Under the pieces are notes generated by a model. The model worked only from the letters and a program-made list of their open reading frames with translations. It did no database searches and had not been told where the DNA came from. The position numbers and the translations under genes were made by a program. This document shows, piece by piece, positions 8,804 to 32,001 of a DNA stretch of 40,578 nt (its first letter is position 1; the number at the start of each line of letters is the position of its first letter). This DNA comes from an uncultured Candidatus Saccharibacteria bacterium. GTDB taxonomy: Bacteria > Patescibacteriota > Minisyncoccia > Phycocordibacterales > PALSA-1337. The DNA lies in NCBI GenBank assembly GCA_964555555.1, contig CAZKSQ010000001.1:1-40578 (forward strand). Reading direction: 5' to 3'.

Positions 8804-10588
8804 TTACCAAATAGGCTTTGGTGCAATGAAGTTGAGCTCGTTTATGACATTCGCCGCCGCGGCCGTGAACCAATTCTGGTCTGTCGAGAAAGCTTGCGGC
8901 GAAGGCGATGCTGTCGGCGTTGCTGAATTCGTCGGCGAAGGCGAAGCGGTAGCCGGGGCGTTTATTTTCACAGTGATAGCCGCAGAAGCAAATATGCCAG
9001 TCCTGCTATTAGTCGCCTTGTAGGTCACTGTCCAATAGCAAGCCGCCGCCGCTTGCGGCACTATCGAGCTCGATATGCCGCTTTGCGAGCCGTTTGCTAC
9101 CGACCATGTTCCGCCAGGCCCGCAAGCGACAGGGTTATTGGAGGTATATGTCGCCGTGAATGTATCCGCATCAGTCGCATTCCATTTATAAATTATATTG
9201 TCGCCTGGATTCAAGACTGCATGGTCGGAACCATTGACCGTAAATGTGACTGCGGGACTCGGCGTGTTGGTCGGAGCTGGGGTGTTCGAATTGGTCGGTG
9301 CAGGATTATTTGATGCAGTAGGTGATGGTGAATATGGATTTGTTGGGACTGGCGAATTTGAAATCGAAGGCGCTGGCGAATAAATCGGAGTAAGGCTTTG
9401 AATATAGGTCGGCGTCGGTGAGTATGTAGGCACAGGGCTTTGTGAATAAATAGGCATTGGCGTGCTTGTCTGTGTCGGAGAAGGCGAATAAGTTCCGGCC
9501 GGTGTCGCTGTCCGTATCGGTTGCTGGCTGTGCGACGGGCTTGCGGTAATAGTTGGTAATATTGAATTCGATGGCTCAATGGTATTCGAAACGTTTGGCG
9601 TTATCACAGGTGTCTGATTGCCAGAATTCGAAACAGGTTCCATTTGTTGCGGTTGGTTATCGATGCCTACAGCTGAATAGAAGGTATTGATGATATTAGA
9701 GTATACGTATTGTGTGCCAGATAATATCGAGTCAAAGAATTTGGGCAGTCCGGTTTTGGGTGTCGTCGGAGATTGTTGCTCTGGTAGATTGCTGACCGAA
9801 GGCAAAGGCGATCCATTCGGCATGTTTGAAATATTACCGATAGTTTGCACGGGCGATACCGCCTCCAAAGCCCCGCCTATGTTCGAGCGAACCTCATAAT
9901 AATATCCGCTGTTTTGAGAAACATTGTTTATAGTCAATGCATGGCTTGTGACATCAGTCTGGTCTTCCGCGTCATGCGGGAACGGGTATCGGTCGCTGTT
10001 ATATTCTGCCGGCGAGCCATATTCGACCAGGGAAGACGAAGGGATATCCGTAGTCCAGGTTACTTGCAAGGAAGAAGGACTGATGAATGAAGCCTTGGGG
10101 TTCGAAATTACTGGCGCGCCTTTTTTATTTTGCACGAATAGCCAGTCGGGCGTTCCGGAGTCCGGCTCGAATAGCATGAAGATTCCTGTGCTAGTATCAG
10201 GCTGTGAGCTTGAAGTAGCGGCTCGAGCCGGGTTCAGGCCGAATATTGGGGATAAGCTCAAAAAAGCCACTAAAACTGCAACAGCAGAGCCATATTTTAT
10301 GCCTTGACAAAAACGACTGTTTGGTATACAATTAATCCAGAAAGTGAGGGATTTATATGATGATACCTGATGCTCTTGCAAAACTGAATGGAATCGATAT
10401 GACAATGAATCTTCTTGCTGTTGCGGCAGTCCTGCTGACTGTCGGAATAATCGCATCGTGGTTCTATCGCCACAAAAAGCATGATCATTGACCATCTCGT
10501 CTCCCTTCGAAGCGCCACCAACAAATCGGTGGCGTTTTTTATTCGCGGTGACTGCCAATTCTGATAATTTTTCCATCCGGTTCTTCAT
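8804..10588 (-). CDS. Large secreted/surface protein with P/T/S-rich linker, Cys-containing C-terminal domain and sorting-signal-like tail
   Basis: ATG at 10588 overlaps the upstream TGA (ATGA coupling). A hydrophobic segment AVAVLVAFLSLSPIFG lies about 115 aa in, so the true start or signal peptide is uncertain. The linker is about 100 aa of P/T/S-rich sequence. The C-terminal domain is paralogous to that of the 18466..23766 protein. Confidence 0.7.
   Translation of the reverse strand: MKNRMEKLSELAVTANKKRHRFVGGASKGDEMVNDHAFCGDRTTMRLFRQSAGLPQQQEDSLSYRFHSVLQEHQVSSYKSLTFWINCIPNSRFCQGIKYGSAVAVLVAFLSLSPIFGLNPARAATSSSQPDTSTGIFMLFEPDSGTPDWLFVQNKKGAPVISNPKASFISPSSLQVTWTTDIPSSSLVEYGSPAEYNSDRYPFPHDAEDQTDVTSHALTINNVSQNSGYYYEVRSNIGGALEAVSPVQTIGNISNMPNGSPLPSVSNLPEQQSPTTPKTGLPKFFDSILSGTQYVYSNIINTFYSAVGIDNQPQQMEPVSNSGNQTPVITPNVSNTIEPSNSILPTITASPSHSQQPIRTATPAGTYSPSPTQTSTPMPIYSQSPVPTYSPTPTYIQSLTPIYSPAPSISNSPVPTNPYSPSPTASNNPAPTNSNTPAPTNTPSPAVTFTVNGSDHAVLNPGDNIIYKWNATDADTFTATYTSNNPVACGPGGTWSVANGSQSGISSSIVPQAAAACYWTVTYKATNSRTGIFASAAITVKINAPATASPSPTNSATPTASPSPQAFSTDQNWFTAAAANVINELNFIAPKPIW
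9255..9545 (-). repeat. Low-complexity Pro/Thr/Ser/Tyr-rich linker-coding region
   Basis: Translates to ...TYSPSPTQTSTPMPIYSQSPVPTYSPTPTYIQSLTPIYSPAPS.... It generates spurious ORFs in other frames. Confidence 0.7.
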
Positions 10589-11712
10589 TGGCAATTATAG
10601 TTATTCGCGATCAGCAACGCTTGTTGCGCTTGCAGGGCGATGAGCTGTGTTTGGTAACTAGCTTTCAGTTTGAGATACTGCGCCTTGTGTGTAGCGATAC
10701 TGCTCTCTAGCTGGTTCCAAATGTCCGCTTCCGGCAGCCAGCCGGTGACGGTATCGTTGTCGATAGTGAGCTGCATATGCGTGGCGGATTTTGGCACCTG
10801 CGCGATAGGCACATAGGTGTTTATGACCTTCATGATATCCTTCGGCAGGCTAGTCAGGTCCTTGAGCTCTCTTTTGTTGTTGAGCCAAGTCACGCTGGTA
10901 TAGATATACTGCTTGTTCACTAGCAGCGGCTGATAATTCTGTGCAAGATCTTGCAGAGTTATGGGTATCAAGTATTGCGTGGCGATGGCTTGGTTTGCCT
11001 GCGAAAGGCTCATCGTCTTGCCCATCAATGCGGCTTGCGCATCTATGGTCGCTCTGCCTGATGTCAGATATCCCCATGTTCCGCCGAGCGATATGCTGTT
11101 CAGCAAGTTTTTCATATTGGTGTTATTGTCGCGCAGCTTCTGCATGTTTTGAAGGGCGATGCTCGGAAGCGGGTTGAATATGTTCGCGCTATCGGAGGAT
11201 GCCGAGCCTACCGTTTCCAGATCATTCTTTATGCCTTGCCCTGCGTCATTGAGGCACATCATCGCGATATTGCTGGCGCTCGGATATGCATGAGGCTCAT
11301 CTATTCCGGCAGGGATCGCTTCCAGCGACAAGCCGTTCAGGTTATCGGCCGAAAAGCTTGAAAGATATATTTGGGTTCTGCCCAAGGAGGCTAGCAGGCC
11401 ATTCACCGAAGCTATGCTGCCTTGGATATCATTGATCTTTTCCGAAAGTATGGTGGACTGCAGATAGCCAGTAGTGCAGGTCGCGCTTTTGGCGAAGTCA
11501 GAAAAAGTGTTCGGGTAAGCCTTCAGCTCATTGGGCGTGACGCAGGCAGACGCTGGCGATACGGTTACTGTTTTTGATAATTGCACAATGCTTGCCGATT
11601 GCTGATTTTCGTCTGCGGTCACTTCCACCTGGCTAGTATCGGCTCTTGCAATCACAAAAAAAGAAAGCAAAACGGCAATCAAGGGAATGGCGATTTGGAG
11701 ACGCGATCTCAT
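10585..11712 (-). CDS. Hypothetical secreted protein (signal peptide, Gln/Asn/Leu-rich, C-terminal coiled-coil-like)
   Basis: ATG at 11712 gives MRSRLQIAIPLIAVLLSFFVIARA|DTS, a signal peptide. It is translationally coupled to the downstream surface protein gene. Confidence 0.65.
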   Translation of the reverse strand: MRSRLQIAIPLIAVLLSFFVIARADTSQVEVTADENQQSASIVQLSKTVTVSPASACVTPNELKAYPNTFSDFAKSATCTTGYLQSTILSEKINDIQGSIASVNGLLASLGRTQIYLSSFSADNLNGLSLEAIPAGIDEPHAYPSASNIAMMCLNDAGQGIKNDLETVGSASSDSANIFNPLPSIALQNMQKLRDNNTNMKNLLNSISLGGTWGYLTSGRATIDAQAALMGKTMSLSQANQAIATQYLIPITLQDLAQNYQPLLVNKQYIYTSVTWLNNKRELKDLTSLPKDIMKVINTYVPIAQVPKSATHMQLTIDNDTVTGWLPEADIWNQLESSIATHKAQYLKLKASYQTQLIALQAQQALLIANNYNCQ

Positions 11713-12714: not shown

Positions 12715-12715
12715 C

Positions 12716-12744: not shown

Positions 12745-12754
12745 ACCTTTCACT

Positions 12755-13570: not shown

Positions 13571-13661
13571 CACTCAAGGTCGATGCGGAGAAGTGGCTAA
13601 ACTGAGCCATGTCACGTATCTGGCAACAGTCAAAAGTTGGTTCGATTCTCGCGGAGGTTAT

Positions 13662-14981: not shown

Positions 14982-15353
14982 ATACCTAAGGGATGACGCA
15001 ACCCCTCCGAGGAGTCCAGGAGGGGTGGAGTTGATAACTTTTAACCTAAAACTTAAACAAATTGACGACATTTGATCGGTGGACAACTAAAATGACTATC
15101 ACACAACATTATGATATTGTACTTACACAACTGAATATGTGCCTAAACCTGCGAAAGCAGGCATGGCAAATAGTCCGGTAAAGATTAGAAAACCCATCAT
15201 GTGGTTCTTGTCTTTACCGGCCATATCAGGAAACTGGTATGGGGAGCTTTGGCTCTCACCCATGTGGTGGGCTTTCTCATGCCACTATTATATGGGTAAA
15301 AGAGGTATAATTTGTTTATTAGAATTATTAAAGGTCAGTTATTATAAAATAAA

Positions 15354-17078: not shown

Positions 17079-17144
17079 ATATGAATTAGTTAGTTAACTG
17101 CTTATCTTCGCACTAGTGTGACCGCTAGGCATTATCTTCACAAT

Positions 17145-18410
17145 ATGAAAAATTTGCAAAAAGGTTTTATTGTCCCATTATTAATTGGCATTATAATTAT
17201 AGTGGTATTACTGATTAGTGGTGGCGCTTATATTTATCAGATTAAGAAAACGGTACAGTCAGAATCTCAAAATACCCAAACACAAATATCGAATCATACG
17301 ATGACGATTAGCGATATAAATATCAGCACAAAAGCAGATATTAAATCAGCATCACCAAAAACTGTTGTGGTCAATCAGGAACTTAGTGTTACTGGTATGG
17401 AAAAATATACTGATTCAGTATTCGGCTACTCCTTTTGGTATCCGTCTTCTTGGGTAGTCAATGAAAATACCAATGTAAATTTAGGAAATATCTACACAGA
17501 TGGTGTCATAACAAAAGAAACAACGATTGCTTCACCGCGATATCCTCGTGATGGCATAGCAATAGATGAGTTCTATTCAAACAACAAAAGCATTACTGAT
17601 AACTCAGTCTGTGGTCCTGCGGACGGATGCCCATCATCTGTACGTTATTACTTTGACAGCAATGCACATACTTGGATGAAAGATTCAAATATGGGCTATG
17701 GACAAGGTCAGTATTCGCTATCCAACATTATGACTGTCGCAACAAACGTATCTACTAATTCTATGGGCGGTCTTCATATTCTTAATGGCAATGCTCGATT
17801 CGGTGATGATGTAATTGTCCCATTGAGTGCCAGCAATTTTCTCATTGTCAGAAATATGAGTGCTGGAACAAATAAGGTCTTTTATCTGGCCAACACGATT
17901 GTTGCTCTTGATCCGGCTGTTGCTACACCACTATCACTATCGCATCAAATTGATGCCATTAGAGCCGAGAAGAATGAGTACAATTTCTCTGCGACTTCTT
18001 GGTCGACGTATAATTTCGGTAATAATAAAATTGATTATCCGAGTGACCTCACTATTCAAAATAGTCCAGGAGGTTGGAATGGAGATTCACCGATCTTCTC
18101 ATTCCCAAGTTCTTACCTTGTCGGATCCAATCTATATGAAGCCAAAATTAATATTATGAGCAGTGTTGGAAATGATCCACCGACAGGAACACAGGTTAAT
18201 ATCAACGGCACAAATTGGACAATGAGTGATTTGCAGAGTTGCAGCGATAGAACGGGTAATTGCAATCGGGTCATAATTTACGGAATATATGGGGCTGGAA
18301 ATACATCGTGGAATTTAAGTCTAATGGCTTCGGATAAGAATAGTCTGAATAGTTTGGCTGCTCAAAATATAATATCAATCTTTACGAAGATGGTCGGTAC
18401 TTATATATAA
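17145..18410 (+). CDS. Hypothetical membrane-anchored/secreted protein
   Basis: ATG at 17145 gives MKNLQKGFIVPLLIGIIIIVVLLISGGAYIY, a signal anchor. The extracytoplasmic part is about 390 aa and Asn/Ser/Thr-rich. No recognised motif. Confidence 0.65.
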   Translation: MKNLQKGFIVPLLIGIIIIVVLLISGGAYIYQIKKTVQSESQNTQTQISNHTMTISDINISTKADIKSASPKTVVVNQELSVTGMEKYTDSVFGYSFWYPSSWVVNENTNVNLGNIYTDGVITKETTIASPRYPRDGIAIDEFYSNNKSITDNSVCGPADGCPSSVRYYFDSNAHTWMKDSNMGYGQGQYSLSNIMTVATNVSTNSMGGLHILNGNARFGDDVIVPLSASNFLIVRNMSAGTNKVFYLANTIVALDPAVATPLSLSHQIDAIRAEKNEYNFSATSWSTYNFGNNKIDYPSDLTIQNSPGGWNGDSPIFSFPSSYLVGSNLYEAKINIMSSVGNDPPTGTQVNINGTNWTMSDLQSCSDRTGNCNRVIIYGIYGAGNTSWNLSLMASDKNSLNSLAAQNIISIFTKMVGTYI

Positions 18411-18465
18411 ATGAGTTAAATATAGATGATAGGTTTGTTTCAGAATTAATATAGGTATAACTAAT

Positions 18466-21400
18466 ATGCTTTTACTAAAATCGAGAAAATATATTGGTAT
18501 ATTAACTCCATTCGTAATCGTTTTATTTTTTGTATTTATCTTTGCAAATTCAGTTCTGTCTGCATCGGGCACCACAGTAAATTTGAGTTCGGATATTGAT
18601 ATCTCTAGATCGGGATTAATATCATCGGTTCCTATAAAACAACTAAATTCGAGTGATAATCCAAAGAATGCATCATCAGCCATCGTTCTAAACCGATATA
18701 TTGTCGAACTTTCAGAACAGCCGGTTTCAGTGACTTATGCCGAAATAGAATCGACAAGACCTGCTCCCAGACCTTCTCCCGGACCAAGATCGATGTCAAT
18801 TGATCAAGATACACAGGACGCATTAAATAATCAAAAATCAAAAGTCATCAATCAACAAAAGTCGTTCTTTGCGAATTTACCTTTGTCTGTTAAGAATAAA
18901 AACTCTGCTGTCATTTCTTCTATATCTTCTGGGGACGGACTGAAATCATTTGATTCAGTGATTAACGCAGTTGTTCTCAGTATGAGTTCATCCGAAGCAG
19001 GTGTGGTCAAAAGACTTGCTTCGGTCAAAAATATCGAGCCAGTAAAATCTGTTCAAACAGACTTGATGGATTCAGTTCCTCTAATACATGCTCCTGATGT
19101 TTGGGGTGGAAATTACTCGGGGGGATCTAGTGACGATCCGATAGCAGGTAAAGGCATAAGAATTGCTATTATCGATACTGGTGTGGACTATAAACATCCT
19201 GATCTCGGTGGTTGTTTGGGACCGGACTGTAAGGTGTTTGGGGGTTACGATTTTGTAAATAAAGATAATGATCCGATGGATGATATGGGTCATGGCACGC
19301 ATGTTGCCGACATCTCAGCTGGTAATGGAACTCCGAAGGGCGTAGCTCCGGATGCAACGATTTATGCTTATAAGGTTTTGGATAAAAATGGACGTGGCAC
19401 GACAGACAATATCCTTGCCGGTATAGAAAGGACAATAGATCCGAACCAAGACGGTAATCTTTCGGAACATCTTGATGTGGCTAATATGAGCCTCGGTGGA
19501 TCAGGCGATCCAGACGATTTAATGTCGCAGGCAGTTGACAATGCTGTAAAAGCCGGAGTTGTCTTCGTGGTTGCGGCAGGAAATGCTGGGCCGAGTGCGA
19601 GCACAGTTCTGTCTCCTGGAACTGCAAGAAATGCAATTACAGTGGCAGCAACTGACAAGCATGACGTCATGGCTTCTTTCAGCTCAAGGGGTCCGGTCGT
19701 ATGGACAAGAAATGATGGTACAACTGGTTATTTAGATAAGCCAGATGTTGCCGCTCCAGGCGTAGATATTTGTGCAGCAAGATTGGATACATTTTCTGGA
19801 GGAAATACAAACTGTAACAATGATTCAAATCATATCGCTATATCTGGTACCTCTATGGCAACTCCACATGTCGCAGGGGAGGTTGCACTTTTATTACAAA
19901 TACATCCAGATTGGTCTCCAGCAGAAGTTAAGGCAGCTGTGAAAAATTCTACTGTTAATCAATCTTCTTGTTTGATCGGTTCCGTATTATGTAGCTCTAA
20001 TAAATATAACAAGTATGATGCAGGGACGGGAAGAATAGATGCGAAAAAACTTGCAGAATCATCAAGGCTTCCAATAGCTCAAATTGATCCCGCGGGTGAT
20101 GTCCGTGGAGTTATAAATTTCACAGGCTCTGCTTATTCTCAGAGGAGTAATATCAAATATTCATTGTCATATGGAATAGGTGACAATCCAAATTCTTTTA
20201 CAGACATAACATCGACAGATCAGCCTGTAAAAAATAATGTTTTATATGCGAATTTCGATACAACAAGTTTAAGTGACGGAAAATATACTGTTCGACTCAC
20301 TGTAACCGATGATGACGGTAATATAAGTGAAGATAGTCAGGTAATGGAAGTAAATGATGCTGAAATTACTTCTGTGGGAAATAATTTAAATTATGTGAAT
20401 GGGGGTACCTATCAAATTCATGGCAAGATTTGGCTAAGAGGCGTATCGAGCTTAAAGGTTTATGCGGATTCTACAAACGGTCCCGCCCTATGTTCAGTAG
20501 ATTATACTCAGAGTGACAGTTTGTGCTCCGCTGGTTTCGGAAACTTATCAGACGGTATTCATCAGCTTTTTCTAAGTGTTCAGATGCCTGGTGGAAGCTG
20601 GAAAACAGGTTTAGGTTTTAAGATCGCCGTTGTAAAAGAAATGTTGGACGGCTGGCCTAAAGAAATCAATTCATTGCCACGAGGTACGCAGTCTACTATA
20701 CAATTTTCTGATAATGAAAATCCCACATTAGTTGTTCCGACATGGGGAGATTGTGTAGTTGATACCTCACAGTGCGGAATGCCAGGACTAAATTTATATC
20801 AAAGCAATGGTTCTTTCAGTCAGTTCAAACTTAGCGACGGATCACAAATGCCGTTTACCCCTGGTGACAATCTAGCCTTACTTAAAAATGATTCTGGAAA
20901 AAAGTATTTAGTAATGCTTAATGATTGCTCATCTCCAAATCCCCCTGAAAATTGGAATTGTGGTCCGATGATAAATAGAGTTGTTGATAAGAGTGGAAAT
21001 ATTTTAGGTTCATGGTTTGAATCGGGGTCGATTACGACGCAACCACCCGCAACAGTTATTGATAATAATGGTAAACCCGAAATCTACACACTAGGTTTGG
21101 ATCTATTCTCTAAAAAGATATGGATAACTGGCCACGATAGTAAGGGAGAAGCCTTAAATAATTTTCCTATAGTATTGCCGCAAGGGGATGGACCTGAAAT
21201 TATGTTTTCAACACACATAGGTCTGTTGAAAAATGGATATCAAAGTACTCTTGCGGCAATAGCGGGGAATTTTACAAATGATTCTGGATATATGAAAGAT
21301 TTCAAGGTGTATTTCTACTTATATTCCAAAGACGGACAGTTGATATCAAAGACTAATTTATTTGATGGCACAGGAAGATCATCTTTTCAACCAACTATAC

Positions 21401-23766
21401 CGTCATTCGCCTCCGCAGATTTTTACGGAGATGGGCGAACTGAGGCCGTCGTCGGGTTAAGTGTCTGGGACAAAGATACAAGTACCGATACGGCTCATCT
21501 TTACATTATTGACGCAACTGGAAAAATCTTATCATCGGCATCATTTGATAACTATGATCCGGCCCGTTTCGCAATCGGCAATCTTATGGGTAGCAAGCCT
21601 AACATTGTTGTTGCGGCTCAGGGTGCATATGTAAAGAGCTTGAATAGTGCCGTACCAGACAAAATACTTGTTTTTGATGAATCGTTAAATAAATTGTTAG
21701 AAATAAGTGAACAATCATATAATAACGATAATCTAATACAAGGTGTATCCGTTGGTGACGTCGATAATGACGGTAAGTCAGATATTGTTTTAGATTACAG
21801 ACCACGTTGGTACAACGGGTCAAATTTCGGTGTTCAAATTTTTGACAATAAAGGTGGTCTAAAACAGGAAATTAAAATACCAACTATGGGAACGGTTGAC
21901 GATCTATGGGGAAGTCCGGCAATCATTGATGATTTTAATGGTGATGGAAATACAGATATTATTTTACAATCTCTGTATTTGAAAAATGGTTCTGAACCAA
22001 TAACTGAGTGGAAAACGCGTCTATACGTTTTGGATTTAGGTACCAAGCTTAATACGTCAAAAATAGATTGGAAAACTGTTCTACATGATGACCAACATAC
22101 AGGATGTTTTAATTGCACGACATCCGCTTCGACGACGCAAGGCTTAGCTTCAACAAGTCCAGTAATAACTAATGTTGCTGATACTGCTTCAAAATGTGGT
22201 GATTTGATTACTATTAAGGGGGCTGCGTTTAGTTCTTATAATAATTCTGTGATATTGACCGAGGTTCCAAATGCCTCATCTACGCAGTATCTTGTTAAGA
22301 CATTTCCCTCAGTTTCGTCTCAAAGTAAAAATTCGACTATAAGCATAGTGTCTTCTCGGAATGGGAATATAAAGTCTGGAGATTATACGATTATTGTAGT
22401 AAACAATGATCTAGAAAAAACAAATAATATCAGTAATTCTCTTCCGGTAACGATTACAAATGTCGTTGGGTCCGCTAATTGTCCGTCTCCGACACCATCG
22501 TCTTCACCCGGTATATCGATAACATTAAAATATATTTCTATATCTCCCGAAAAAGCGGCTCAGCCGAAAATCAGGTCGACTAGCATCCTAAATCAGATTG
22601 TGGATGGGGTAGTTAACGCTATTGGTAATACTGTAAATACAATTGTAAATAATTTGACTGGACAAAATTCTTATACGAGTTCGTCTGCAACGCCGACTCC
22701 GACTCAAAGATCGAGTTCCAGTACCTCTCCAAGTCCGACCTCTCAATCACCAACTGGTGCAAGGTTACCATCACCATCCAGTTCGTCGACTGTATTACCT
22801 ACCGCATCACCATCAACCTATTCTAAAAATTATTCTACACAGTCTTCTGTATCACCTAATCCGAGTAAATCGGCTTCACCAACCCCAACCAAGTCTGCAA
22901 GTCCAACACCTGCTCAAAGTCCAACTCCGGCACCTACAAAATCTTCTTCACCTACACCTAGCCCTAGTTCTACTAGTTATTCGACGCCGACTCCTACAGG
23001 GACATCCTCACCAACCCCAACTCGTTCGGCAACTCCAACTCCCACTCCAAGCTCATCATCCACGGTAACCCCAACACCTACAGCGACCTTTTCAACTACG
23101 CCTGCCCCAACATCAACGGTAACCCCAACCCCTACACCAAAATCATCTTCTACTCCAAGTCCAACCCCAATTTCCACCCCAACTCCGACACAATCGAATA
23201 CTCCGAGTCAGACCCAAACGCCATCTTCAAGCCCTACCCCCACCGCAACCCCTACACCCCCAGTTCAATCATCTACACCAACTCCGACTCCAACTAGTAC
23301 TTATGTGCCTTCTCCCACAGCTTTACTTACGGTGAATGGTGCACATAATGTCACCTTGAATGTCAGTGATCCAATAAATTACTATTGGAATGGCACAAAC
23401 GGCACATCCTATTCATCTACTTACACCTCAAATATCGCTTGGAAATGTGGCTCTGGGGGATCGTGGATCGCAAATACCTTGAACGGTAATTCAAATTCTA
23501 CCGTGCCGAGCGCTGCTGCTGGTTGTTATTGGACAGCAACATATACTGTGTATAACAGCTCAACCGGAAGATCGGCTTCAGATTACATCACGATTAACAT
23601 AAATCCCTTACCAACAACGTCCCCCACTCCTTCTTCATCGAGTTCGCCGTCTCCATCATCGTCGCCAAATGCATATAGAAATTCAAACTACGATCTGAGT
23701 ACAATATTATTGTCTCTTTTCCAGCCGTGGGCTAATTTAGCAAACGTGATTGGTAATTTGAAATAA
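18466..23766 (+). CDS. Giant secreted S8 subtilisin-like serine protease with FG-GAP/VCBS-like repeats, P/T/S linker, Cys domain and C-terminal tail
   Basis: Catalytic triad contexts are IAIIDTGVD (Asp codon 19174-19176), HGTHVA (His 19291-19293) and SGTSMATPHVAG (Ser 19852-19854). It carries an N-terminal signal anchor. FG-GAP-like repeats include ADFYGDGRTEAVVG, VGDVDNDGKSDIVLD and IDDFNGDGNTDIILQ. The P/T/S linker is about 210 aa. Confidence 0.9.
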   Translation: MLLLKSRKYIGILTPFVIVLFFVFIFANSVLSASGTTVNLSSDIDISRSGLISSVPIKQLNSSDNPKNASSAIVLNRYIVELSEQPVSVTYAEIESTRPAPRPSPGPRSMSIDQDTQDALNNQKSKVINQQKSFFANLPLSVKNKNSAVISSISSGDGLKSFDSVINAVVLSMSSSEAGVVKRLASVKNIEPVKSVQTDLMDSVPLIHAPDVWGGNYSGGSSDDPIAGKGIRIAIIDTGVDYKHPDLGGCLGPDCKVFGGYDFVNKDNDPMDDMGHGTHVADISAGNGTPKGVAPDATIYAYKVLDKNGRGTTDNILAGIERTIDPNQDGNLSEHLDVANMSLGGSGDPDDLMSQAVDNAVKAGVVFVVAAGNAGPSASTVLSPGTARNAITVAATDKHDVMASFSSRGPVVWTRNDGTTGYLDKPDVAAPGVDICAARLDTFSGGNTNCNNDSNHIAISGTSMATPHVAGEVALLLQIHPDWSPAEVKAAVKNSTVNQSSCLIGSVLCSSNKYNKYDAGTGRIDAKKLAESSRLPIAQIDPAGDVRGVINFTGSAYSQRSNIKYSLSYGIGDNPNSFTDITSTDQPVKNNVLYANFDTTSLSDGKYTVRLTVTDDDGNISEDSQVMEVNDAEITSVGNNLNYVNGGTYQIHGKIWLRGVSSLKVYADSTNGPALCSVDYTQSDSLCSAGFGNLSDGIHQLFLSVQMPGGSWKTGLGFKIAVVKEMLDGWPKEINSLPRGTQSTIQFSDNENPTLVVPTWGDCVVDTSQCGMPGLNLYQSNGSFSQFKLSDGSQMPFTPGDNLALLKNDSGKKYLVMLNDCSSPNPPENWNCGPMINRVVDKSGNILGSWFESGSITTQPPATVIDNNGKPEIYTLGLDLFSKKIWITGHDSKGEALNNFPIVLPQGDGPEIMFSTHIGLLKNGYQSTLAAIAGNFTNDSGYMKDFKVYFYLYSKDGQLISKTNLFDGTGRSSFQPTIPSFASADFYGDGRTEAVVGLSVWDKDTSTDTAHLYIIDATGKILSSASFDNYDPARFAIGNLMGSKPNIVVAAQGAYVKSLNSAVPDKILVFDESLNKLLEISEQSYNNDNLIQGVSVGDVDNDGKSDIVLDYRPRWYNGSNFGVQIFDNKGGLKQEIKIPTMGTVDDLWGSPAIIDDFNGDGNTDIILQSLYLKNGSEPITEWKTRLYVLDLGTKLNTSKIDWKTVLHDDQHTGCFNCTTSASTTQGLASTSPVITNVADTASKCGDLITIKGAAFSSYNNSVILTEVPNASSTQYLVKTFPSVSSQSKNSTISIVSSRNGNIKSGDYTIIVVNNDLEKTNNISNSLPVTITNVVGSANCPSPTPSSSPGISITLKYISISPEKAAQPKIRSTSILNQIVDGVVNAIGNTVNTIVNNLTGQNSYTSSSATPTPTQRSSSSTSPSPTSQSPTGARLPSPSSSSTVLPTASPSTYSKNYSTQSSVSPNPSKSASPTPTKSASPTPAQSPTPAPTKSSSPTPSPSSTSYSTPTPTGTSSPTPTRSATPTPTPSSSSTVTPTPTATFSTTPAPTSTVTPTPTPKSSSTPSPTPISTPTPTQSNTPSQTQTPSSSPTPTATPTPPVQSSTPTPTPTSTYVPSPTALLTVNGAHNVTLNVSDPINYYWNGTNGTSYSSTYTSNIAWKCGSGGSWIANTLNGNSNSTVPSAAAGCYWTATYTVYNSSTGRSASDYITININPLPTTSPTPSSSSSPSPSSSPNAYRNSNYDLSTILLSLFQPWANLANVIGNLK
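22681..23320 (+). repeat. Low-complexity Pro/Thr/Ser-rich linker-coding region (subtilase)
   Basis: Translates to SSSATPTPTQRSSSSTSPSPTSQSPT...TPTPTPTSTYVPSPTA. It shares blocks of about 55 nt of near-identity with 26040-26095. Confidence 0.75.
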
Positions 23767-23897
23767 TTCTTTATAATAAACACTTTCTTTAATGAATTGT
23801 AAAATCAATTTCCACTTCCATATATTGTTACCCAAATGTTTTATACGCGACAAAATAATGTTAAAATTGTAGCAGGCTTCTTTAAATCGATAATGTT

Positions 23898-26381
23898 ATG
23901 ACTTACAAGATTCGCAAATTATATGTAGTATTTATTCTTTTATTTTTCTTTTTAAAAGTTCCCATAGTATCTGCCCAGTATGTTAATCAGCGCTATTGTC
24001 ACTCTCCAAACGATACAAGAATTTTTACAGGTATCGCCTATAATGAAAGCGGTACCCCACAGATCACAATTGGTGTCGATCCAACCTTTAAGAAAGCTAT
24101 GGAAGGTGAACAAAAAATAGCTAGCTTGTCTATATCAGTTACACCTATATATGATCTAGTGGTTACCGTCATACCGACTTACAATCACTACTGTCTCCCA
24201 ATATGGGATTCGCATGGAATGCAAATCGCACCAGAAAATCTACCAGACTCATTGCCATTCAGTGCCGACATTGTACTTTCGGGCGGTCAAAAGAAAGACG
24301 AGACAATTACCTCTGGATCGTTTGAAAATGGTCACAAAAATGAAGATGGTGCATGGGAATATGACTGGAAAATAAAAGGTTGGCCAGACGGTATTACTTC
24401 GGGTTCAAAAATGGAAGATTTGATTGACGCTCTCCAAAATGGAACTCGCCAAATTAAGATTATAGTCCATGTTCCAGAAATAGATGGTACATTTACTGAC
24501 TCTGAATCAGATGTGAATATGAGTTTGTGCGCACCAGTTTACGGATCGGGCGAATTTAAAGTAGTCACCATGAGGGGAAAGAGTGCAAATGAGTCGTTAA
24601 GCAATTTAATTTTATTCGGTTATAGCACAGTCAAATCAGGATTTGAAGAGATTCAACCATTTGCTAAATACAGTTCTCATTTCTCGCAATACATAGATTT
24701 AGGAAATTATGATGATTATCAATATGGAACTCGACAGGTAAATGTATTTGACGGTAAATCTCCTCACACTTATTACATTAATCCGTATATACCCGAAATG
24801 ACGAGCGCTTGTCCAAGCTCACGTTTGTATTATTTTTTGAATAATAGGAGCTATTTTGCCTATACACAAGCAAATAGTAAAGATATATTTATAAACCCCA
24901 AAGAAGTAGACAGTGCCACTGTGATGCATGAAGCAGGACACGCATTTGCTGGATTGGAGGACGAATACATAGTAACGGATAACATCAGCGATCTTACGGC
25001 TTCAACTATACTATCAAGATTTGGTGAAAACTGTACTCTGAGTCCACCTGAGGCATATACATACAATAAAAAATACTATGGCAACCAACACAAACTCGGT
25101 TGTTTTACGTACGCGAATCAAAAGTATTCTGTCTTCAGACCATCCAACAACAGTATTATGAATACAGGCAATAAATTTAACATGATTTCTTGCGCTTACG
25201 TAATATCGGCTATTCTGGGTGATTCAACATCTAAATTGCATCTTCCAGAATGTTTTAAACTTGATGGTTTGGAAGATTCTGGAAAGTATTATGATCCCAG
25301 TCAGGCCTTAAATTATTATCTGCCTTTCGTTTTAAATAAAGCTGAATATGACCCAAATATCGCTGCTGTAGGCGTTTCTGGTCAAGAATATAATTCTGAG
25401 AACATATTCTGGTTAGTTGATAATTTTGATTCAAAAAATCGGTCAGGTGCAATCATGGAAGTTAATACAGGCGGCAGACTCGTTAATTCTTTTAAGCCTA
25501 AACCTTCAAATTCACCGTCACCCATTCAAAATGATTCCTCATTGCGCTCACTAACAGATACATCCACAGGAAAAGATACTTCCAGTAAGAGTGTCCTACT
25601 GAAATCTATTGGCATCATGATTTCAGGCACAGAAGAAGTCTTTTCAAACATGGTTAGGATAGTCAGTGCGGTGTTTACTGGGAATCAGACATCACCTGTT
25701 TTAAAATCAGATTCTAACAATTCACCGAACTCAGCGATTTCTCCCAGTCATAGTCCCACTCGGTCTATATCAGTAAGTCCAGCTTACTCAAGTGCGCCTA
25801 GTCCATCTTCAGCACAGACCAAAAGTCCCGGCTCTTTACCTACTACTTATTCAAACCTCTTACCTAGATCTTCCCCTACTCAGAGCTCGAGTCCTACTCC
25901 AATTGGTTCATATCAGTCCGTAAGTCCCACACCAAGCACTTCTCCTGGTCCTACACATAACCCAACATCCACGTATTCATCTTCACCATCTTCTAGCCCT
26001 TCAACAACCCCAACACTTTTGGCAACCCCAACCCCAACACCAAGCTCCTCATCCACAGTAACCCCAACGCCTACAGCAACCTTTTCAGCTACGCCAACAC
26101 CTTCACCTAAATCGTCGTCCACCCCCACTCCAGCACCAACACAGTCTACTACCCCGAGTCCGACACCATATTCAAGCTTTAGCCCCACACCAACCCCTAC
26201 ACATCCAATTCAATCATCCACACCAACCCCCACTCCTTCTTCATCGAGTTCGCCATCCCCGTCATCATCGCCAAGTGCTTTTAATACAAATCCAAATCAA
26301 TCGGTACTAGGCTTAATGGTTTCATCATTCATCAGTCCATGGATGAATATGGCCAGTGCATTTATGAGTATAATAAAATGA
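23898..26381 (+). CDS. Secreted M64-like zinc metallopeptidase with P/T/S linker and C-terminal tail
   Basis: Signal peptide (LYVVFILLFFFLKVPIVSA|Q). HEAGHAFAGLEDEY (HExxH at 24927-24941) matches the HExxH...L.DEY signature I recall for peptidase family M64. The C-terminal 220 aa are P/T/S-rich. Confidence 0.7.
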   Translation: MTYKIRKLYVVFILLFFFLKVPIVSAQYVNQRYCHSPNDTRIFTGIAYNESGTPQITIGVDPTFKKAMEGEQKIASLSISVTPIYDLVVTVIPTYNHYCLPIWDSHGMQIAPENLPDSLPFSADIVLSGGQKKDETITSGSFENGHKNEDGAWEYDWKIKGWPDGITSGSKMEDLIDALQNGTRQIKIIVHVPEIDGTFTDSESDVNMSLCAPVYGSGEFKVVTMRGKSANESLSNLILFGYSTVKSGFEEIQPFAKYSSHFSQYIDLGNYDDYQYGTRQVNVFDGKSPHTYYINPYIPEMTSACPSSRLYYFLNNRSYFAYTQANSKDIFINPKEVDSATVMHEAGHAFAGLEDEYIVTDNISDLTASTILSRFGENCTLSPPEAYTYNKKYYGNQHKLGCFTYANQKYSVFRPSNNSIMNTGNKFNMISCAYVISAILGDSTSKLHLPECFKLDGLEDSGKYYDPSQALNYYLPFVLNKAEYDPNIAAVGVSGQEYNSENIFWLVDNFDSKNRSGAIMEVNTGGRLVNSFKPKPSNSPSPIQNDSSLRSLTDTSTGKDTSSKSVLLKSIGIMISGTEEVFSNMVRIVSAVFTGNQTSPVLKSDSNNSPNSAISPSHSPTRSISVSPAYSSAPSPSSAQTKSPGSLPTTYSNLLPRSSPTQSSSPTPIGSYQSVSPTPSTSPGPTHNPTSTYSSSPSSSPSTTPTLLATPTPTPSSSSTVTPTPTATFSATPTPSPKSSSTPTPAPTQSTTPSPTPYSSFSPTPTPTHPIQSSTPTPTPSSSSSPSPSSSPSAFNTNPNQSVLGLMVSSFISPWMNMASAFMSIIK
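25719..26283 (+). repeat. Low-complexity Pro/Thr/Ser-rich linker-coding region (M64-like protein)
   Basis: Translates to NSPNSAISPSHSPTRS...TPTPTPSSSSSPSPSSSPSAF. Segments are near-identical at DNA level to the subtilase linker and tail. Confidence 0.75.
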
Positions 26382-27148
26382 AGATGAATTTTTCAAGCGT
26401 AAACTGGTCAAAATTTTTTTTGGTTCAACTATTTGCTTTTCTGATTGCGGGCTACGCCTTTGTATATAACATTTCTACATCTTTTCTATTTAATCAATAT
26501 ATTGATTCTGATGATTTATATTTTCTATTTGCACCTAGAGGTGTTGCCTGGCTCCATTATCCCTTTGTCACACTTATCGTTTTTATAATCATTTCCTTTT
26601 TATTATCTATGATAATAAATCGAGAAACAAGAAAAGCTGGTTATACTATCGGATGGTCGTTTACGGTATTGGGTCTCATGATTCTATTTCTCGTAAATAT
26701 GGGGGATCACTCTGATACTGCCCAGTTTGTCTTCTTTAGTATGGTCGGCCAGACTAGTGTTTTTGTTCTGTTACCTTTGCTTGTAGTACTGCCGATAGTA
26801 TTTTTTATCAGCGAAAAGTTGAAGGTAAATGAGATCGGAGTTGTTTTTGTTCTTGCCGTTATAGCACTGGCAATAAATATTGCATACATCAATACTTGCG
26901 GCTTTGGAAACAATGCAAAATGTGAATTACGGCAGCGGATTATCAAATTTGACGCCTCTGCATGTGAAGTTCCGGGATTGGCCACTTTTGAGAAAAATAA
27001 TTGCTATACCCTGATAGCAGCATATTCTGGAGATACAAACTTGTGCTCAAGTGTGGTTACATATGACAAACATAGCGGATTTACATGGCCAAAAGAGGAT
27101 TGTCTGAATAGAAAGAAATTTGATGACAGACTTCTTTACCATTTCTAG
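26378..27148 (+). CDS. Polytopic membrane protein with a Cys-rich C-terminal extracytoplasmic domain
   Basis: ATG at 26378 overlaps the upstream TGA (ATGA coupling). About 5-6 TM helices, then a tail of about 85 aa with 6 Cys. No recognised family. Confidence 0.65.
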   Translation: MKMNFSSVNWSKFFLVQLFAFLIAGYAFVYNISTSFLFNQYIDSDDLYFLFAPRGVAWLHYPFVTLIVFIIISFLLSMIINRETRKAGYTIGWSFTVLGLMILFLVNMGDHSDTAQFVFFSMVGQTSVFVLLPLLVVLPIVFFISEKLKVNEIGVVFVLAVIALAINIAYINTCGFGNNAKCELRQRIIKFDASACEVPGLATFEKNNCYTLIAAYSGDTNLCSSVVTYDKHSGFTWPKEDCLNRKKFDDRLLYHF

Positions 27149-27204
27149 TTTTCTTGTTTTACATCACCTCATTTGATAATGTACAAAAAGAAAGGAGATA
27201 CGAT

Positions 27205-27417
27205 ATGCAAGTGAAAATCGGCTCTGGAATTGCAAACAAGGATCCGGATAATCGCGACTTTACTGTGACACTCATTCCGGAAACAGCAGAGGAAAATGAA
27301 GCACTGGAGATTATGAGATCTTTTTCCAGTATATCAAAGACCTTCCACGGCTTCTTGCGTTCTGCCTATGAGGTTAGTGTGCACGGAGTTGGTGTTACCG
27401 TATCCTTGTTCCCGTAA
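27205..27417 (+). CDS. Small hypothetical protein (70 aa)
   Basis: ATG at 27205 is preceded by AAAGGAG at 27190-27196 with 8-nt spacing, and followed by a terminator. No homology recognised. Confidence 0.5.
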   Translation: MQVKIGSGIANKDPDNRDFTVTLIPETAEENEALEIMRSFSSISKTFHGFLRSAYEVSVHGVGVTVSLFP

Positions 27418-27423
27418 GACTGT

Positions 27424-27452
27424 AGAGAGTATCCAGCTGGGTACTCTCTTTT
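27424..27452. terminator. Bidirectional terminator hairpin between the two convergent island operons
   Basis: AGAGAGTA-(10-nt loop)-TACTCTCT followed by TTTT. It lies between the stop at 27417 (+) and the stop at 27460 (-). Confidence 0.6.
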
Positions 27453-27459
27453 CATATAA

Positions 27460-29295
27460 TTAAAACTCTGCTCCGAAGATTTCCTTAAATTTTGTCGTAT
27501 GTTCGGTAACAGTTTTTTCATTCTGCTCTATTGCGTCCAAATCTATAATGAGATCATGCTGAAATCTCAGCTCCTTTCGGCTGAACATTATTTCGGACTT
27601 ACTCTTTTTGCTCTTCTCATGAGTATTTATCGCTACTTGTATGGCTTCATTATTTTGTTCAATATGTTCCTTGATAATTTTCAATCTCTCCGTTACGTGT
27701 TCAGCCATATCTACGTCATATATTTTTGAGATTTTATCCAAAACGCTTTTAAAGGCTAGAAGTTGGGAATAGCTGTTAATAAGATCATCTCGTCTTGCCA
27801 TAAAAGCGACCCCCAATGCCGCATCTTTGAACTTTAAAACTTCCTTACTATCCTCTACGATTTCCTCGAAAAAAGCGTTTCCTCTTGTAAGAGCAGAAAT
27901 TTTTGAAACAGTCATGCCAAACATACTGAATATATCCGCCTCACCCTCATCATTCATGCTGCAGACCAAAAGCTCCTGATCAAGGTGTTCGCTTTTGTGA
28001 TCGGGGTCATTTTCGTCATAAACCAGACCCAAATTTGGATCATATCTGTCTACTTGTTCCTTGAATTTTATGACAAAATCGTAATCTTCAGTAAAAGCGC
28101 ACAAGCTTTCGCCGCTGATAACACTTCCTTCGAATGGCTCAAACGCGACTTTTTCTTCAATTTCGCCTTTTTCTGTTATTTCAATGCCAATATTTTCTAA
28201 TACTTTTCTGGCTGTTTCCAGTTCGCCGTTATACAGGCCTTTGCTGTAAAGCATATCTTTTCTGGTTTCTTCTTCAGTTCGCTCGCGCAACACAAGCTCA
28301 CCAGAAATGACATGACCTTGTAGAATATTTCTGGCCTCGACTTTCGTCGAAAGCCATCTGTCTAACAGCTCCGAGGAATTACTTACTGAAAGCGGCCGAT
28401 AATCATTAAGGATTCCTGCTTCTATTCCTATACGGAGACCTTCCTTGAGCATTTCCTCAACTGATATTTTGTGTTCCGCGGCGTATGACACAACTGATGC
28501 AGTCACATCATTGCAGGTGACGCTGTCTTCGTCGTCACATTCCTGATTTTTAGATAACGGTTTGCCGTTAATTTTAATACCCTTACTCCTCAAAAAGTAT
28601 TTAGCGACCTCGACCAAAGGGATGCAGGCAAAATAATGAAAAAGCTGGTATTCCTTGGCGAATTTATTATAGCTTTTTTCTGCTACGAGTTCCGCCAGTC
28701 TTTCTTTGGCTGTGTCCGAGAGTTCAGATTTTCCGTTGTATAGATTTGCCAAGATTTCTTCTTGATCAAGATATTGGTGGTCAGTTTCAATATCGGGGTA
28801 GAGTTCATTCATTTTCTCTTTGTCTTCTGAGCTAAGCATCTGAAATGCGAGGTTATATACGGCATGTTCTAAGTCAACACCTTCTCGTATTTTTACTGCT
28901 CTTTGCTTAGTTGCAATCTCTGTTGCTTCTTCTACAGTCACTTTCTTTATTTGCTTCAAGGTATTAATGCATCCCGCCATCTCTCTGTGACCGGGATACG
29001 AAAGGAGCTTCATGATTATCGGCAGTTGTGATAGGTACGCTATTTTTGCATCCTTGTAAATGAGTTCTGCTTCGATTTCCATCCTGCCGGAATATTTCCA
29101 ACCGTCGTTTAAACGATTCCATTCTCGCGCCTCAGTGCTATTGTTTGAGTGCCAATTTTCTAGAGCATCCTTGTCTGCCGGAGTAAGTATTTCTTTGCCA
29201 GTCTTCATTTTGTGCACGTCATTTTTTATGAGCAGCAGGAATCTCTCCCGTGCCGTAAGATTTCCTCGATGAAGCATATTTGTGAGATTTTGCAT
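27460..29295 (-). CDS. Hypothetical 611-aa acidic, predicted helical protein (no recognisable domain)
   Basis: Long uninterrupted ORF, last gene of the minus-strand island operon. Its start is 1 nt after the upstream stop. Glu/Asp/Lys-rich, with no TM segment and no catalytic motif I can name. Confidence 0.7.
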   Translation of the reverse strand: MQNLTNMLHRGNLTARERFLLLIKNDVHKMKTGKEILTPADKDALENWHSNNSTEAREWNRLNDGWKYSGRMEIEAELIYKDAKIAYLSQLPIIMKLLSYPGHREMAGCINTLKQIKKVTVEEATEIATKQRAVKIREGVDLEHAVYNLAFQMLSSEDKEKMNELYPDIETDHQYLDQEEILANLYNGKSELSDTAKERLAELVAEKSYNKFAKEYQLFHYFACIPLVEVAKYFLRSKGIKINGKPLSKNQECDDEDSVTCNDVTASVVSYAAEHKISVEEMLKEGLRIGIEAGILNDYRPLSVSNSSELLDRWLSTKVEARNILQGHVISGELVLRERTEEETRKDMLYSKGLYNGELETARKVLENIGIEITEKGEIEEKVAFEPFEGSVISGESLCAFTEDYDFVIKFKEQVDRYDPNLGLVYDENDPDHKSEHLDQELLVCSMNDEGEADIFSMFGMTVSKISALTRGNAFFEEIVEDSKEVLKFKDAALGVAFMARRDDLINSYSQLLAFKSVLDKISKIYDVDMAEHVTERLKIIKEHIEQNNEAIQVAINTHEKSKKSKSEIMFSRKELRFQHDLIIDLDAIEQNEKTVTEHTTKFKEIFGAEF

Positions 29296-29296
29296 G

Positions 29297-29515
29297 TTAT
29301 TTTCTCTTTTTTAGCGTCTGCTCAAGAAATTCAATCCTCTCTTTCAGGTTCGAGACCTCGATCATCTTTGAAAAGGCAAGAGCCAGGCGCGATACGACCA
29401 CGGCGCGTCGAAGCGTGGTTTTTCTTTGGGCTACTTCCTCCAGTGTTTCAGAGACGATTGTGGCCGCATCTTCTAAGCTCATGCATTTCTTTTCATTTTT
29501 GTCTGGTGTATTCAT
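29297..29515 (-). CDS. Small coiled-coil-like protein (72 aa)
   Basis: ATG at 29515 lies 11 nt after the upstream stop. The longer 29554 start would overlap the upstream gene. Contains a heptad-like LKERIEFLEQTLKKRK. Confidence 0.5.
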   Translation of the reverse strand: MNTPDKNEKKCMSLEDAATIVSETLEEVAQRKTTLRRAVVVSRLALAFSKMIEVSNLKERIEFLEQTLKKRK

Positions 29516-29526
29516 AATATTGTCGG

Positions 29527-29916
29527 TTACATTCCTTCCACGATCTCCATCCAAGCCCTCACTTCTGCCGCTTTGCCTGTTTTGGTTGCTTCGCGGTAGA
29601 GTGCGGATAGCACGTTTGGAGTCAATTTCTTAGCCCACGAGGAAATATTTTTCATGAGCCCGCCTGATTCCTCGATTTTCTTGTTCCACGCGGAAAGTGT
29701 TCCTAAATCTTTTATGCCGAATCGTTTGGCAAAATCGGTCTGATTCTTGATATCAAGAAGTGCCATAGCCATTTCGTCATCGATGCCAAGCTTCTCGATT
29801 ACATGTCTTGGCTGTCCGCGGAGAATCGAAGGCATTGATCGCCAAAGCACATAGGATTCGAATTCCTGCTTTTTGTATATGTTCAAGGATTCGCCATCTT
29901 TCGCATCGTTTTCCAT
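29527..29916 (-). CDS. Small phage/plasmid-type HTH DNA-binding protein (weak resemblance to terminase small subunit)
   Basis: 129 aa. NQTDFAKRFGIKDLGTLSAWNKK looks like an HTH, and the C-terminal ALYREATKTGKAAEVRAWMEIVEG resembles phage small HTH proteins. The resemblance is weak. Confidence 0.5.
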   Translation of the reverse strand: MENDAKDGESLNIYKKQEFESYVLWRSMPSILRGQPRHVIEKLGIDDEMAMALLDIKNQTDFAKRFGIKDLGTLSAWNKKIEESGGLMKNISSWAKKLTPNVLSALYREATKTGKAAEVRAWMEIVEGM

Positions 29917-29921
29917 ATGTT

Positions 29922-31932: not shown

Positions 31933-32001
31933 GATAGTTGTTTATGTATTACTGATAAGTGAAGTATAGTAACTATTTAAGGCAAAAAAATATGTTGATA
32001 A

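Follow-up and report, generated by a model that had tools for sequence, protein, structure and literature searches.

Why do three secreted proteins encoded on a single contig of an uncultured Candidatus Saccharibacteria bacterium end in the same way? The proteins are a subtilase, an M64-like metalloprotease and a protein of 596 residues (the 596-aa protein), and in all three a long linker rich in Pro, Thr and Ser (PTS linker) is followed by an SP-x-A-[FY] junction and a tail of 27 to 32 residues. They lie in the window analyzed here, which is the whole 40,578-bp contig CAZKSQ010000001.1 (GenBank assembly GCA_964555555.1) and the sole genome sequence at hand. The original prediction held that the shared ending is a new protein-sorting signal that follows the logic of sortase and exosortase substrates. 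Our analysis indicates that the tails are a real, wider and uncurated C-terminal module, probably for targeting or anchoring, and that they do not look like a sortase-like tripartite signal. Numbers beginning with P and L denote protein hits and related loci, respectively, and coordinates of all features are collected in Table 1.

The three tails are homologous

Translation reproduces exactly the three C-termini on which the original prediction was based; positions 23632..23766, for example, encode the end of the subtilase, SSSSSPSPSSSPNAYRNSNYDLSTILLSLFQPWANLANVIGNLK*. Translated in six frames, the window contains only four occurrences of the SP.A[FY] pattern, three of which are situated 34-37 codons before the stop codons of the three carriers.

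Relatedness of the tails was assessed by aligning the last 30 residues, with 1000 shuffles per pair. The subtilase and M64 tails align with a score of 39, compared with 17.8 +/- 4.1 for shuffled sequences, and 1 of the 1000 shuffles reaches this score (z ~5). With the last 30 residues alone, the 596-aa tail is not significantly similar to the subtilase tail (77/1000 shuffles) or to the M64 tail (364/1000 shuffles). The subtilase and the 596-aa protein are, however, 50% identical over approximately 147 residues, and this similarity spans a domain of ~95 residues, a short linker and the SPxA[FY] motif and continues into the tail (W..A.ANVI..L). The homology of the 596-aa tail to the subtilase tail is thus judged from this shared C-terminal module, not from the tail taken alone. 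Judged from these alignments, the three window tails are homologous, and the layout of linker, junction and tail that had been proposed for three secreted proteins is real.

The tails are not equivalent in every respect. Those of the subtilase and the M64-like protease both keep a P-W-x-N-[LM]-A core and a terminal Lys. The 596-aa tail lacks the stretch of about 12 hydrophobic residues that precedes the Trp in the other two (maximal Kyte-Doolittle hydropathy over 19 residues, KD19, of 0.6 versus 1.2). A segment of about 20 moderately hydrophobic residues, which had been ascribed to all three proteins, is therefore present in the subtilase and M64 tails but not in the 596-aa tail.

Two further comparisons concern the conservation of the tails. 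An orthologue of the 596-aa protein (P0012, 43% identical) retains the tail elements SPSPQA, [DN]WFTA, N.IN.LNF and K..W, whereas its linker is not conserved. Between the subtilase and M64 genes, a block of ~55 nucleotides that encodes PTPSSSSSPSPSSSP[NS]A (positions 23621-23675 and 26227-26281) is ~92% identical, whereas the flanks of this block, including the tail proper, are ~50% identical at the nucleotide level. The block looks like the product of recent gene conversion at the junction between linker and tail. Because the block is ~92% identical and the tails ~50%, the junction appears to have been homogenized recently, while the tails themselves are old and diverged homologues.

A wider family of tail-bearing proteins

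In the subtilase and the 596-aa protein, the tail is preceded by the ~95-residue domain mentioned above, which we call the Cys domain. Its consensus is TLTVNG..Y.WSSTNAD.FSS.YT....CG.G.W.AN..G......AGC.WT.TYTA.NS.TG.SASD.V.V.V, and its AlphaFold2 (AF2) model is a seven-strand beta-sandwich with a predicted local distance difference test (pLDDT) value of ~98. Foldseek comparison of the domain with the PDB yielded generic Ig-like and PKD-like matches, none at E<=1e-3, and Pfam contains no model that matches it.

An exhaustive search of 1.84 billion sequences with a hidden Markov model (HMM) profile of the module, built from two sequences, retrieved 200 cluster representatives at E<=1e-3 and 88 at E<=1e-10. 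What the 200 representatives have in common is the Cys domain, which often occurs as 2-9 copies in tandem. The NCBI annotation of one hit, P0032, reads 'peptidoglycan-binding protein [Patescibacteria group bacterium]'. Many proteins of the family extend 20-60 residues past their last domain and end in short tails, such as GFWNWLKSLFGL, NAFNWLFNSVKNIFK, GFTDFFKSLFGR and ASIWDAVRQYFDSMAR; further examples are SPSAVNYRNYTANVLGNIWNWLNSLFGW, SSSPQAVQSDNGDQTAAGANSGGFWSNLFKALGF, SNSPQANATQSSLNASIWDAVRQYFDSMAR and SSSPSAYVDQDALTASIWASIKAYYEENI. The tails end 0-3 residues from the C-terminus. Their sequences are very diverse, and what is conserved among them is physicochemical in nature only. The motif [ST]P-x-A-[FYVANI] is found 27-36 residues from the end of five other representatives (P0012, P0024, P0032, P0049 and P0052) and is missing from most family tails.

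A set of 46 tail proteins was picked partly by eye and partly by hydrophobic moment. By a crude hydropathy test, 33 of the 46 have N-termini that resemble signal peptides. Their passenger domains include PG_binding_1 (9 proteins), TIG (6), Kre9_KNH (6) and PKD_4 (4), as well as dockerin and lectin domains. The tail is a strictly C-terminal, conserved module on proteins that bear signal peptides and have unrelated passenger domains.

Metagenomic sequences add a few cases. A scan with a six-sequence alignment found only two loci. The 13-kb metagenomic contig L081 encodes two large secreted proteins with tails, at 2121-6536 (ending in SISVFNAFEGVYNFFGSLFK) and at 9744-13031 (ending in SAQMASTLESIRVLLEEMRAALRQ). 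The Cys domain is missing from the second of these, whose tail is similar to the tails of P0057 and P0062. One more independent tail is found in L082.

Other searches based on sequence similarity were negative. In a word-indexed homologue search, the C-terminal 148 residues of the subtilase have no match at E<=1, and alignments of two tails and of ten tails gave either no candidates at all or none at E<=10, although short, low-complexity queries are beyond the reach of such a search. Neither Pfam nor NCBIfam contains a model that matches the three window tails or ten family tails at E<=10, which agrees with the earlier statement that the motif matches none of the sorting signals considered there. 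Literature searches found no descriptions of such tails in the candidate phyla radiation (CPR). A 43%-identical orthologue that keeps the tail, five more carriers of the [ST]PxA motif and dozens of related amphipathic tails demonstrate a wider family, and not merely a few recent paralogues.

Comparison with tripartite sorting signals

Published criteria for tripartite signals comprise C-terminal position, several occurrences per genome, a signature with at least three invariant residues, a hydrophobic segment of transmembrane (TM) grade, a basic cluster and a signal peptide on the carrier (10.1101/2023.06.07.544157). The sequence ends in 2-5 basic residues, for the most part Arg, which form the basic cluster (10.1101/2023.06.07.544157).

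Some of these properties are present in the window. Each of the three tails extends as far as the stop codon, three carriers occur in the 40.6-kb contig and two on L081, and the N-termini of all three window carriers have a hydrophobic segment like that of a signal peptide. For the signature, the picture is ambiguous: S-P-x-A is found in the three window tails and in five other proteins, 27-37 residues from the end, but its S-P is the end of the linker and most family tails lack it.

The remaining properties are absent. No stretch in the window tails is hydrophobic enough and long enough to be a TM segment. The KD19 maxima are 1.23, 1.21 and 0.61 for the subtilase, M64 and 596-aa tails, compared with 2.4-3.1 in the TM and signal segments of the window. 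In the same order, the summed Hessa ΔG values are +6.8, +6.0 and +11.8 kcal/mol, compared with -3.2 to +0.65 for the window's TM and signal segments. A weak TM anchor was also rejected on the basis of these ΔG values. Each window tail has one Lys in its last eight residues, so there is no basic cluster. Curated models of sorting signals match neither the window tails nor the family tails, and no sortase, exosortase, rhomboid or CPBP domain occurs in any open reading frame (ORF) of the contig. The absence of a recognizable sorting enzyme in the window had been part of the original prediction and is confirmed. The proposed sortase or exosortase logic is not supported, given the lack of a TM-grade segment and a basic cluster, the weak S-P-x-A signature and the lack of a sorting enzyme in the contig.

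The comparison can be drawn for the known systems as a group, that is, LPXTG with sortase, PEP-CTERM with exosortase, PGF-CTERM with archaeosortase, GlyGly-CTERM with rhombosortase, and MYXO-CTERM with a CPBP-type myxosortase. The tails resemble these signals in their extreme C-terminal position, in having several carriers per genome, in the signal peptides and varied passengers of the carriers, and in the short motif that follows a glycosylatable linker. They differ in lacking a TM-length hydrophobic segment and an Arg/Lys cluster, in their weak signature, and in that neither a cognate enzyme nor an NCBIfam match was found for them. Signals of the C-terminal domain of the type IX secretion system and of the type I secretion system were also considered and rejected, because the tails are not long enough, Sec signal peptides are present on the carriers and no matching model was found.

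Amphipathic character of the tails

Hydrophobic moments distinguish the ends of the family proteins from their interiors. Among 150 family C-termini, 45 exceed the 95th percentile of the moment in control segments (7.5 expected, hence a ~6-fold excess) and 14 exceed the 99th percentile, although a few of these are the last helix of a PG_binding_1 domain. In the last 18 residues of the 148 non-window hits, taken without selection, the moment peaks at 90-100 degrees with values of 0.25-0.26, versus 0.165 for internal windows.

The composition of the set of 46 tails is biased. Leu is enriched 2.9-fold, Arg 2.2-fold, Phe 2.0-fold, Trp 1.85-fold and Lys 1.5-fold, Pro is depleted to 0.1-fold and the tails contain no Cys. 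Of the 46, 28 end in Arg or Lys, and the mean net charge is +0.87. When half of the set was used to train a tail HMM, the best match in a held-out protein fell among its final 30 residues in 115 of 138 trials, where ~7 were expected. Because the 46 tails were partly picked by eye and moment, this cross-validation is partly circular and is supportive evidence, not independent evidence.

The window tails are placed within this family in different ways. An SPxA-tail HMM built without the orthologue P0012 gives the 596-aa tail 7.2 bits, which ranks it 11th of 243 domain hits. For the subtilase and M64 tails, membership in the family follows from their position and from the homology of the module, not from tail sequence, because the tail HMMs miss both. 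The window tails contain one or two Trp residues each, with only one Lys each. In the AF2 model, the subtilase tail is not packed on the preceding domain.

A possible in-plane membrane anchor

The tail is best explained as the end-piece of a modular display cassette used by surface proteins of CPR bacteria. Such a cassette would begin with a Sec signal peptide, continue through passenger domains and a long, probably O-glycosylated PTS spacer, and often include one or more Ig-like Cys domains. It would end with a short spacer that closes in SP-x-A-[FYV], 6-12 polar residues and a segment of 12-25 residues that is predicted to form an amphipathic helix and not to span the membrane.

As to the function of this end-piece, we tentatively favor, at somewhat less than an even chance, an in-plane amphipathic membrane anchor that is independent of any enzyme and is comparable to that of the penicillin-binding protein PBP5. 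After export by Sec, the terminal segment would lie in the plane of the cytoplasmic membrane, folded as an amphipathic helix on its outer leaflet, with the aromatic and Leu residues of the helix directed toward the lipid and the terminal Lys or Arg at the head groups. The enzyme would then be tethered to its own cell via the extended linker, and neither cleavage nor a dedicated sorting enzyme would be needed. A tail that stays uncleaved and serves only to anchor the protein had been named together with the original prediction as the contrary case. That the tails form helices, that the membrane is what they bind and that they are not processed are all three inferred.

The analogy draws on a known arrangement. 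In E. coli, a C-terminal amphipathic helix of 18 residues tethers the Sec-exported PBP5 to the outer face of the inner membrane (PMC2909392). Like the low-molecular-weight penicillin-binding proteins of E. coli (PBP5, PBP6 and DacD), which are Sec-exported enzymes held on the outer face by a short (~18-residue) C-terminal amphipathic helix with no processing enzyme, the window carriers are Sec-exported and have a short terminal segment that is too polar to span the bilayer. The family tails match these anchors in length, helical periodicity, enrichment of aromatic residues and Leu, and basic ends. There is no sequence homology between the two groups. In the monoderm-type CPR lineage, the helix would come after long PTS linkers and Ig-like domains and be borne by passengers of great diversity; a semi-conserved SP-x-A junction precedes it, and its binding to membranes is predicted. 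Moreover, the subtilase and M64 tails hold a central Pro-Trp and are less amphipathic than typical members of the family.

Short terminal amphipathic helices also act as the membrane-targeting sequences of MinD and FtsA, with endings of the type ...F(L)KRLFGG. These endings resemble family tails such as GFTDFFKSLFGR and GFANFFKNLFGY. The resemblance is physicochemical only, and MinD and FtsA are non-secreted proteins whose helices act on the cytoplasmic face of the membrane.

Several observations weigh against an anchor of this type. The window tails have only modest hydrophobic moments (97th, 92nd and 87th percentile for the subtilase, M64 and 596-aa tails), and AF2 models no helix with confidence in the subtilase tail (pLDDT ~50). 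The subtilase and M64 tails are atypical of the family in having a central Pro-Trp, a single charged residue and many Asn and Ser residues, and neither the general tail HMM nor the SPxA-subfamily HMM gives them a positive score. All members of the family were found via the Cys domain, searches with tails alone having failed, and the circularity of the HMM cross-validation applies here as well. The recurrence of an SP-x-A junction at a set distance from the end is not required if the tail simply binds lipid, and the junction could instead be a site of recognition or cleavage. Finally, no result singles out the membrane over other possible targets of the tails, such as the cell wall, an S-layer, a partner protein or a host cell.

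The three window carriers each have a second segment of similar character. These internal segments are located just before the long PTS linker in all three proteins, and that of the 596-aa protein is conserved in the orthologue P0012 and resembles the true C-terminal tails of other proteins. The possibility that the internal segments are sequence repeats of the tails was rejected, since none of the local alignments reaches significance; what remains valid is that the segments are amphipathic and where they are located. The segments may be former C-termini that were extended by an appended linker-tail cassette, or they may be a second anchor.

Alternative explanations

The nearby gene for a 256-residue polytopic membrane protein is relevant to more than one alternative. 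Its overlap with the M64 gene suggests that the two are translationally coupled, and the protein is the only nearby candidate for a partner or receptor of the tails. It has no match in Pfam or NCBIfam, and its single-sequence AF2 model is unusable (pLDDT 55).

One alternative is that the tail is a helix for docking or oligomerization, which would bind an S-layer, a pilus, the 256-residue membrane protein or an internal helix, or would form coiled coils, and would not bind lipid. Heptad-like spacing and tails with two helices in some members (P0021, P0033, P0051, P0056 and P0148) are suggestive of such contacts. So are the internal amphipathic segment in each window protein, with its conservation in the orthologue of the 596-aa protein, and the coupling of a membrane-protein gene to the M64 gene; the poorly charged window tails would also suit contacts between proteins. 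The great diversity of tail sequences fits lipid binding better than a specific partner, however, and the enrichment of Trp and Phe and the terminal Arg or Lys are typical of interfacial membrane helices. No conserved neighboring gene is seen between the window and L081, and the AF2 model shows no packing on the adjacent domain. On balance, docking to a partner seems unlikely.

A processed sorting signal of a novel kind would differ from the in-plane anchor in that a putative membrane enzyme reads SP-x-A-[FYV], removes the tail and attaches the protein to the cell wall, a lipid or a glycan. The strict C-terminal position, several copies within one 40-kb contig and the signal peptides of all window carriers are what such a signal predicts, as is an [ST]P-x-A motif at a constrained 27-37 residues from the end in the three window proteins and five unrelated representatives. 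The archaeal PGF-CTERM signal likewise follows a glycosylatable linker. The gene for a polytopic membrane protein is also apparently coupled to the M64 gene, and as no known model matches, the signal would be new. This reading is nevertheless quite improbable: the tails lack two defining properties of tripartite signals, namely the TM-grade segment and the basic cluster (one Lys or Arg in the last eight residues), SPxA is missing from most family tails and its S-P corresponds to linker composition, none of the window ORFs contains a sortase, exosortase, rhomboid or CPBP domain, and no membrane protein is common to the window and L081.

It is also conceivable, although the chance is small, that the tails with SP-x-A are an uncurated targeting device distributed throughout the Patescibacteria. 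They might be the substrate signal of a processing or attachment system, for which the coupled 256-residue membrane protein would be the lead. Alternatively, they might be cationic helices like those of antimicrobial peptides that insert into the membrane of the host; Trp- and Phe-rich helices on long glycosylated tethers could then help epibionts to attach to their hosts or to permeabilize them.

That the shared ends have no specific function, and are a by-product of cassette shuffling by recombination among PT-linker genes with drifting C-termini, is very unlikely: the ~92%-identical junction between ~50%-identical flanks, the linker repeat families common to the subtilase and M64 genes, the location of two of the three carrier genes on one mobile element and the internal segments, which could be former C-termini with appended cassettes, are all compatible with it, but the tail is kept between 43%-identical orthologues whose linkers are not, the subtilase and M64 tails retain P-W-x-N-[LM]-A and the terminal Lys although their nucleotide sequences have diverged by ~50%, and amphipathic periodicity and compositional bias at the C-terminus extend across the family.

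Carrier genes and genomic context

Table 1. Positions of the carrier genes, their C-terminal elements and the adjacent membrane-protein gene in the window
Feature	Coordinates	Strand	Sequence	Remarks
Subtilase gene	18466..23766	+		1766 aa: signal peptide, S8 domain, PKD-like and FG-GAP regions, linker, Cys domain, tail
Internal amphipathic tail-like segment, subtilase	22573..22665	+	RSTSILNQIVDGVVNAIGNTVNTIVNNLTGQ	muH15 (hydrophobic moment) 0.55, rank 0.993 within protein
Long Pro/Thr/Ser linker, subtilase	22666..23313	+		PTS fraction >0.6; repeat families in common with M64 linker
Cys domain, subtilase	23314..23613	+		Ig-like beta-sandwich, two conserved Cys, just before tail
Tail, subtilase	23662..23763	+	SPNAYRNSNYDLSTILLSLFQPWANLANVIGNLK	SPxA[FY] junction, polar spacer, weakly hydrophobic segment, P-W, amphipathic end, terminal Lys
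M64-like metalloprotease gene	23898..26381	+		827 aa, HEAGH motif, weak Pfam M64 match
Internal amphipathic tail-like segment, M64-like protease	25587..25688	+	KSVLLKSIGIMISGTEEVFSNMVRIVSAVFTGNQ	muH15 0.56, rank 0.994
Long Pro/Thr/Ser linker, M64-like protease	25719..26267	+		Last ~55 nt ~92% identical to subtilase linker/tail junction
Tail, M64-like protease	26268..26378	+	SPSAFNTNPNQSVLGLMVSSFISPWMNMASAFMSIIK	No Cys domain before tail
256-aa polytopic membrane protein	26378..27148	+		Cys-rich C-terminal part; ATG overlaps M64 stop codon (ATGA)
596-aa secreted protein gene	8804..10594	-		Weak Pfam match to purple-acid-phosphatase N-terminal (FN3-like) domain
Internal amphipathic tail-like segment, 596-aa protein	9653..9748	-	LPKFFDSILSGTQYVYSNIINTFYSAVGIDNQ	muH15 0.51, rank 0.988
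Long Pro/Thr/Ser linker, 596-aa protein	9257..9547	-		PTS-rich composition
Cys domain, 596-aa protein	8957..9256	-		50% identical to subtilase Cys domain
Tail, 596-aa protein	8807..8908	-	SPSPQAFSTDQNWFTAAAANVINELNFIAPKPIW	From translation; kept in orthologue P0012

The subtilase and M64 genes are located in an integrated element of ~19.9 kb (13554-33432). The element is bounded by an exact 18-nucleotide direct repeat, GATTCCTGCTGGGAGCAC, at 13554-13571 and 33415-33432, and the first copy is the 3' end of a tRNA-Arg(CCG). Besides the two protease genes, the element contains genes for a serine recombinase (13662-15086, minus strand), a ParB-methylase, a second DNA methylase and an M78/helix-turn-helix pair. 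Its GC content is ~0.40, versus ~0.49 in the surrounding DNA. Because both genes are inside the element, two of the three tail proteins are mobile cargo. Exact-protein look-ups found no identical proteins on record for the M64-like protease or the subtilase, and scans of viral contigs with the M64 protein, a 611-residue protein and the recombinase yielded no match.

Other parts of the contig also bear on integration. The 3' 20 nucleotides of a tRNA-His (36483-36502) are repeated exactly at 36651-36670, and a 125-nucleotide segment beside the attR-side repeat of the ~19.9-kb element (33303-33427) is 71% identical to 36541-36665. The DNA downstream of the tRNA-His repeat region (36430-36670) has a low GC content (~0.37) and encodes a Fic protein. 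The region may represent either a second integration site or what is left of one. In a related Patescibacteria metagenome-assembled genome (MAG), locus L002 encodes a serine recombinase (4015-5691, minus strand) that is 32% identical to that of the window and lies a few kilobases downstream of rplS, which suggests that the region is a recurrent integration hotspot.

The gene for the 596-aa protein is chromosomal. Together with an overlapping gene for a secreted protein of 385 residues, it occupies 8804-11742 (minus strand) between tRNA-Arg(TCT) and tRNA-Val. Relatives found in a genome scan are MAGs of the Paceibacteria/Parcubacteria type, whose RluD proteins are 64-67% identical to that of the window, and the source organism is accordingly placed among the Patescibacteria of this type. 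In two of them (L003 and L004), the interval from PilM to RluD is otherwise syntenic and lacks both the 596-aa protein and its 385-residue neighbor; the pair is thus a lineage-specific insertion. The scan with RluD found no tail-bearing orthologues.

A possible source of glycosylation is encoded near the other end of the contig. A protein O-mannosyltransferase gene (2339-3706, plus strand; PMT and PMT_4TMC, E 1e-42 and 1e-38) adjoins a gene for a family 2 glycosyltransferase (GT2; 3766-4500, plus strand), which could be a polyprenyl-phosphate-mannose synthase. The pair is a plausible route by which the Pro/Thr/Ser linkers might be O-mannosylated.

Implications

Not every shared C-terminal tail is a sortase-like signal, and the criteria of hydrophobicity and a basic cluster separate the two readings cheaply. 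By analogy, the tails described here resemble amphipathic-helix anchors, which are a known kind of element; what would be new is their occurrence in a lineage whose surface display is poorly understood. Patescibacteria (CPR) account for a large share of bacterial diversity and many of them live attached to host cells, and the means by which they tether enzymes and adhesins to their surface are largely obscure. In the present contig, proteases encoded by a mobile element are furnished with the same putative tether as proteins of the chromosome. A recurrent and uncurated end-piece that consists of a PTS linker, an Ig-like Cys domain and an amphipathic tail provides a handle with which the displayed surface proteome of these bacteria could be defined from sequence.

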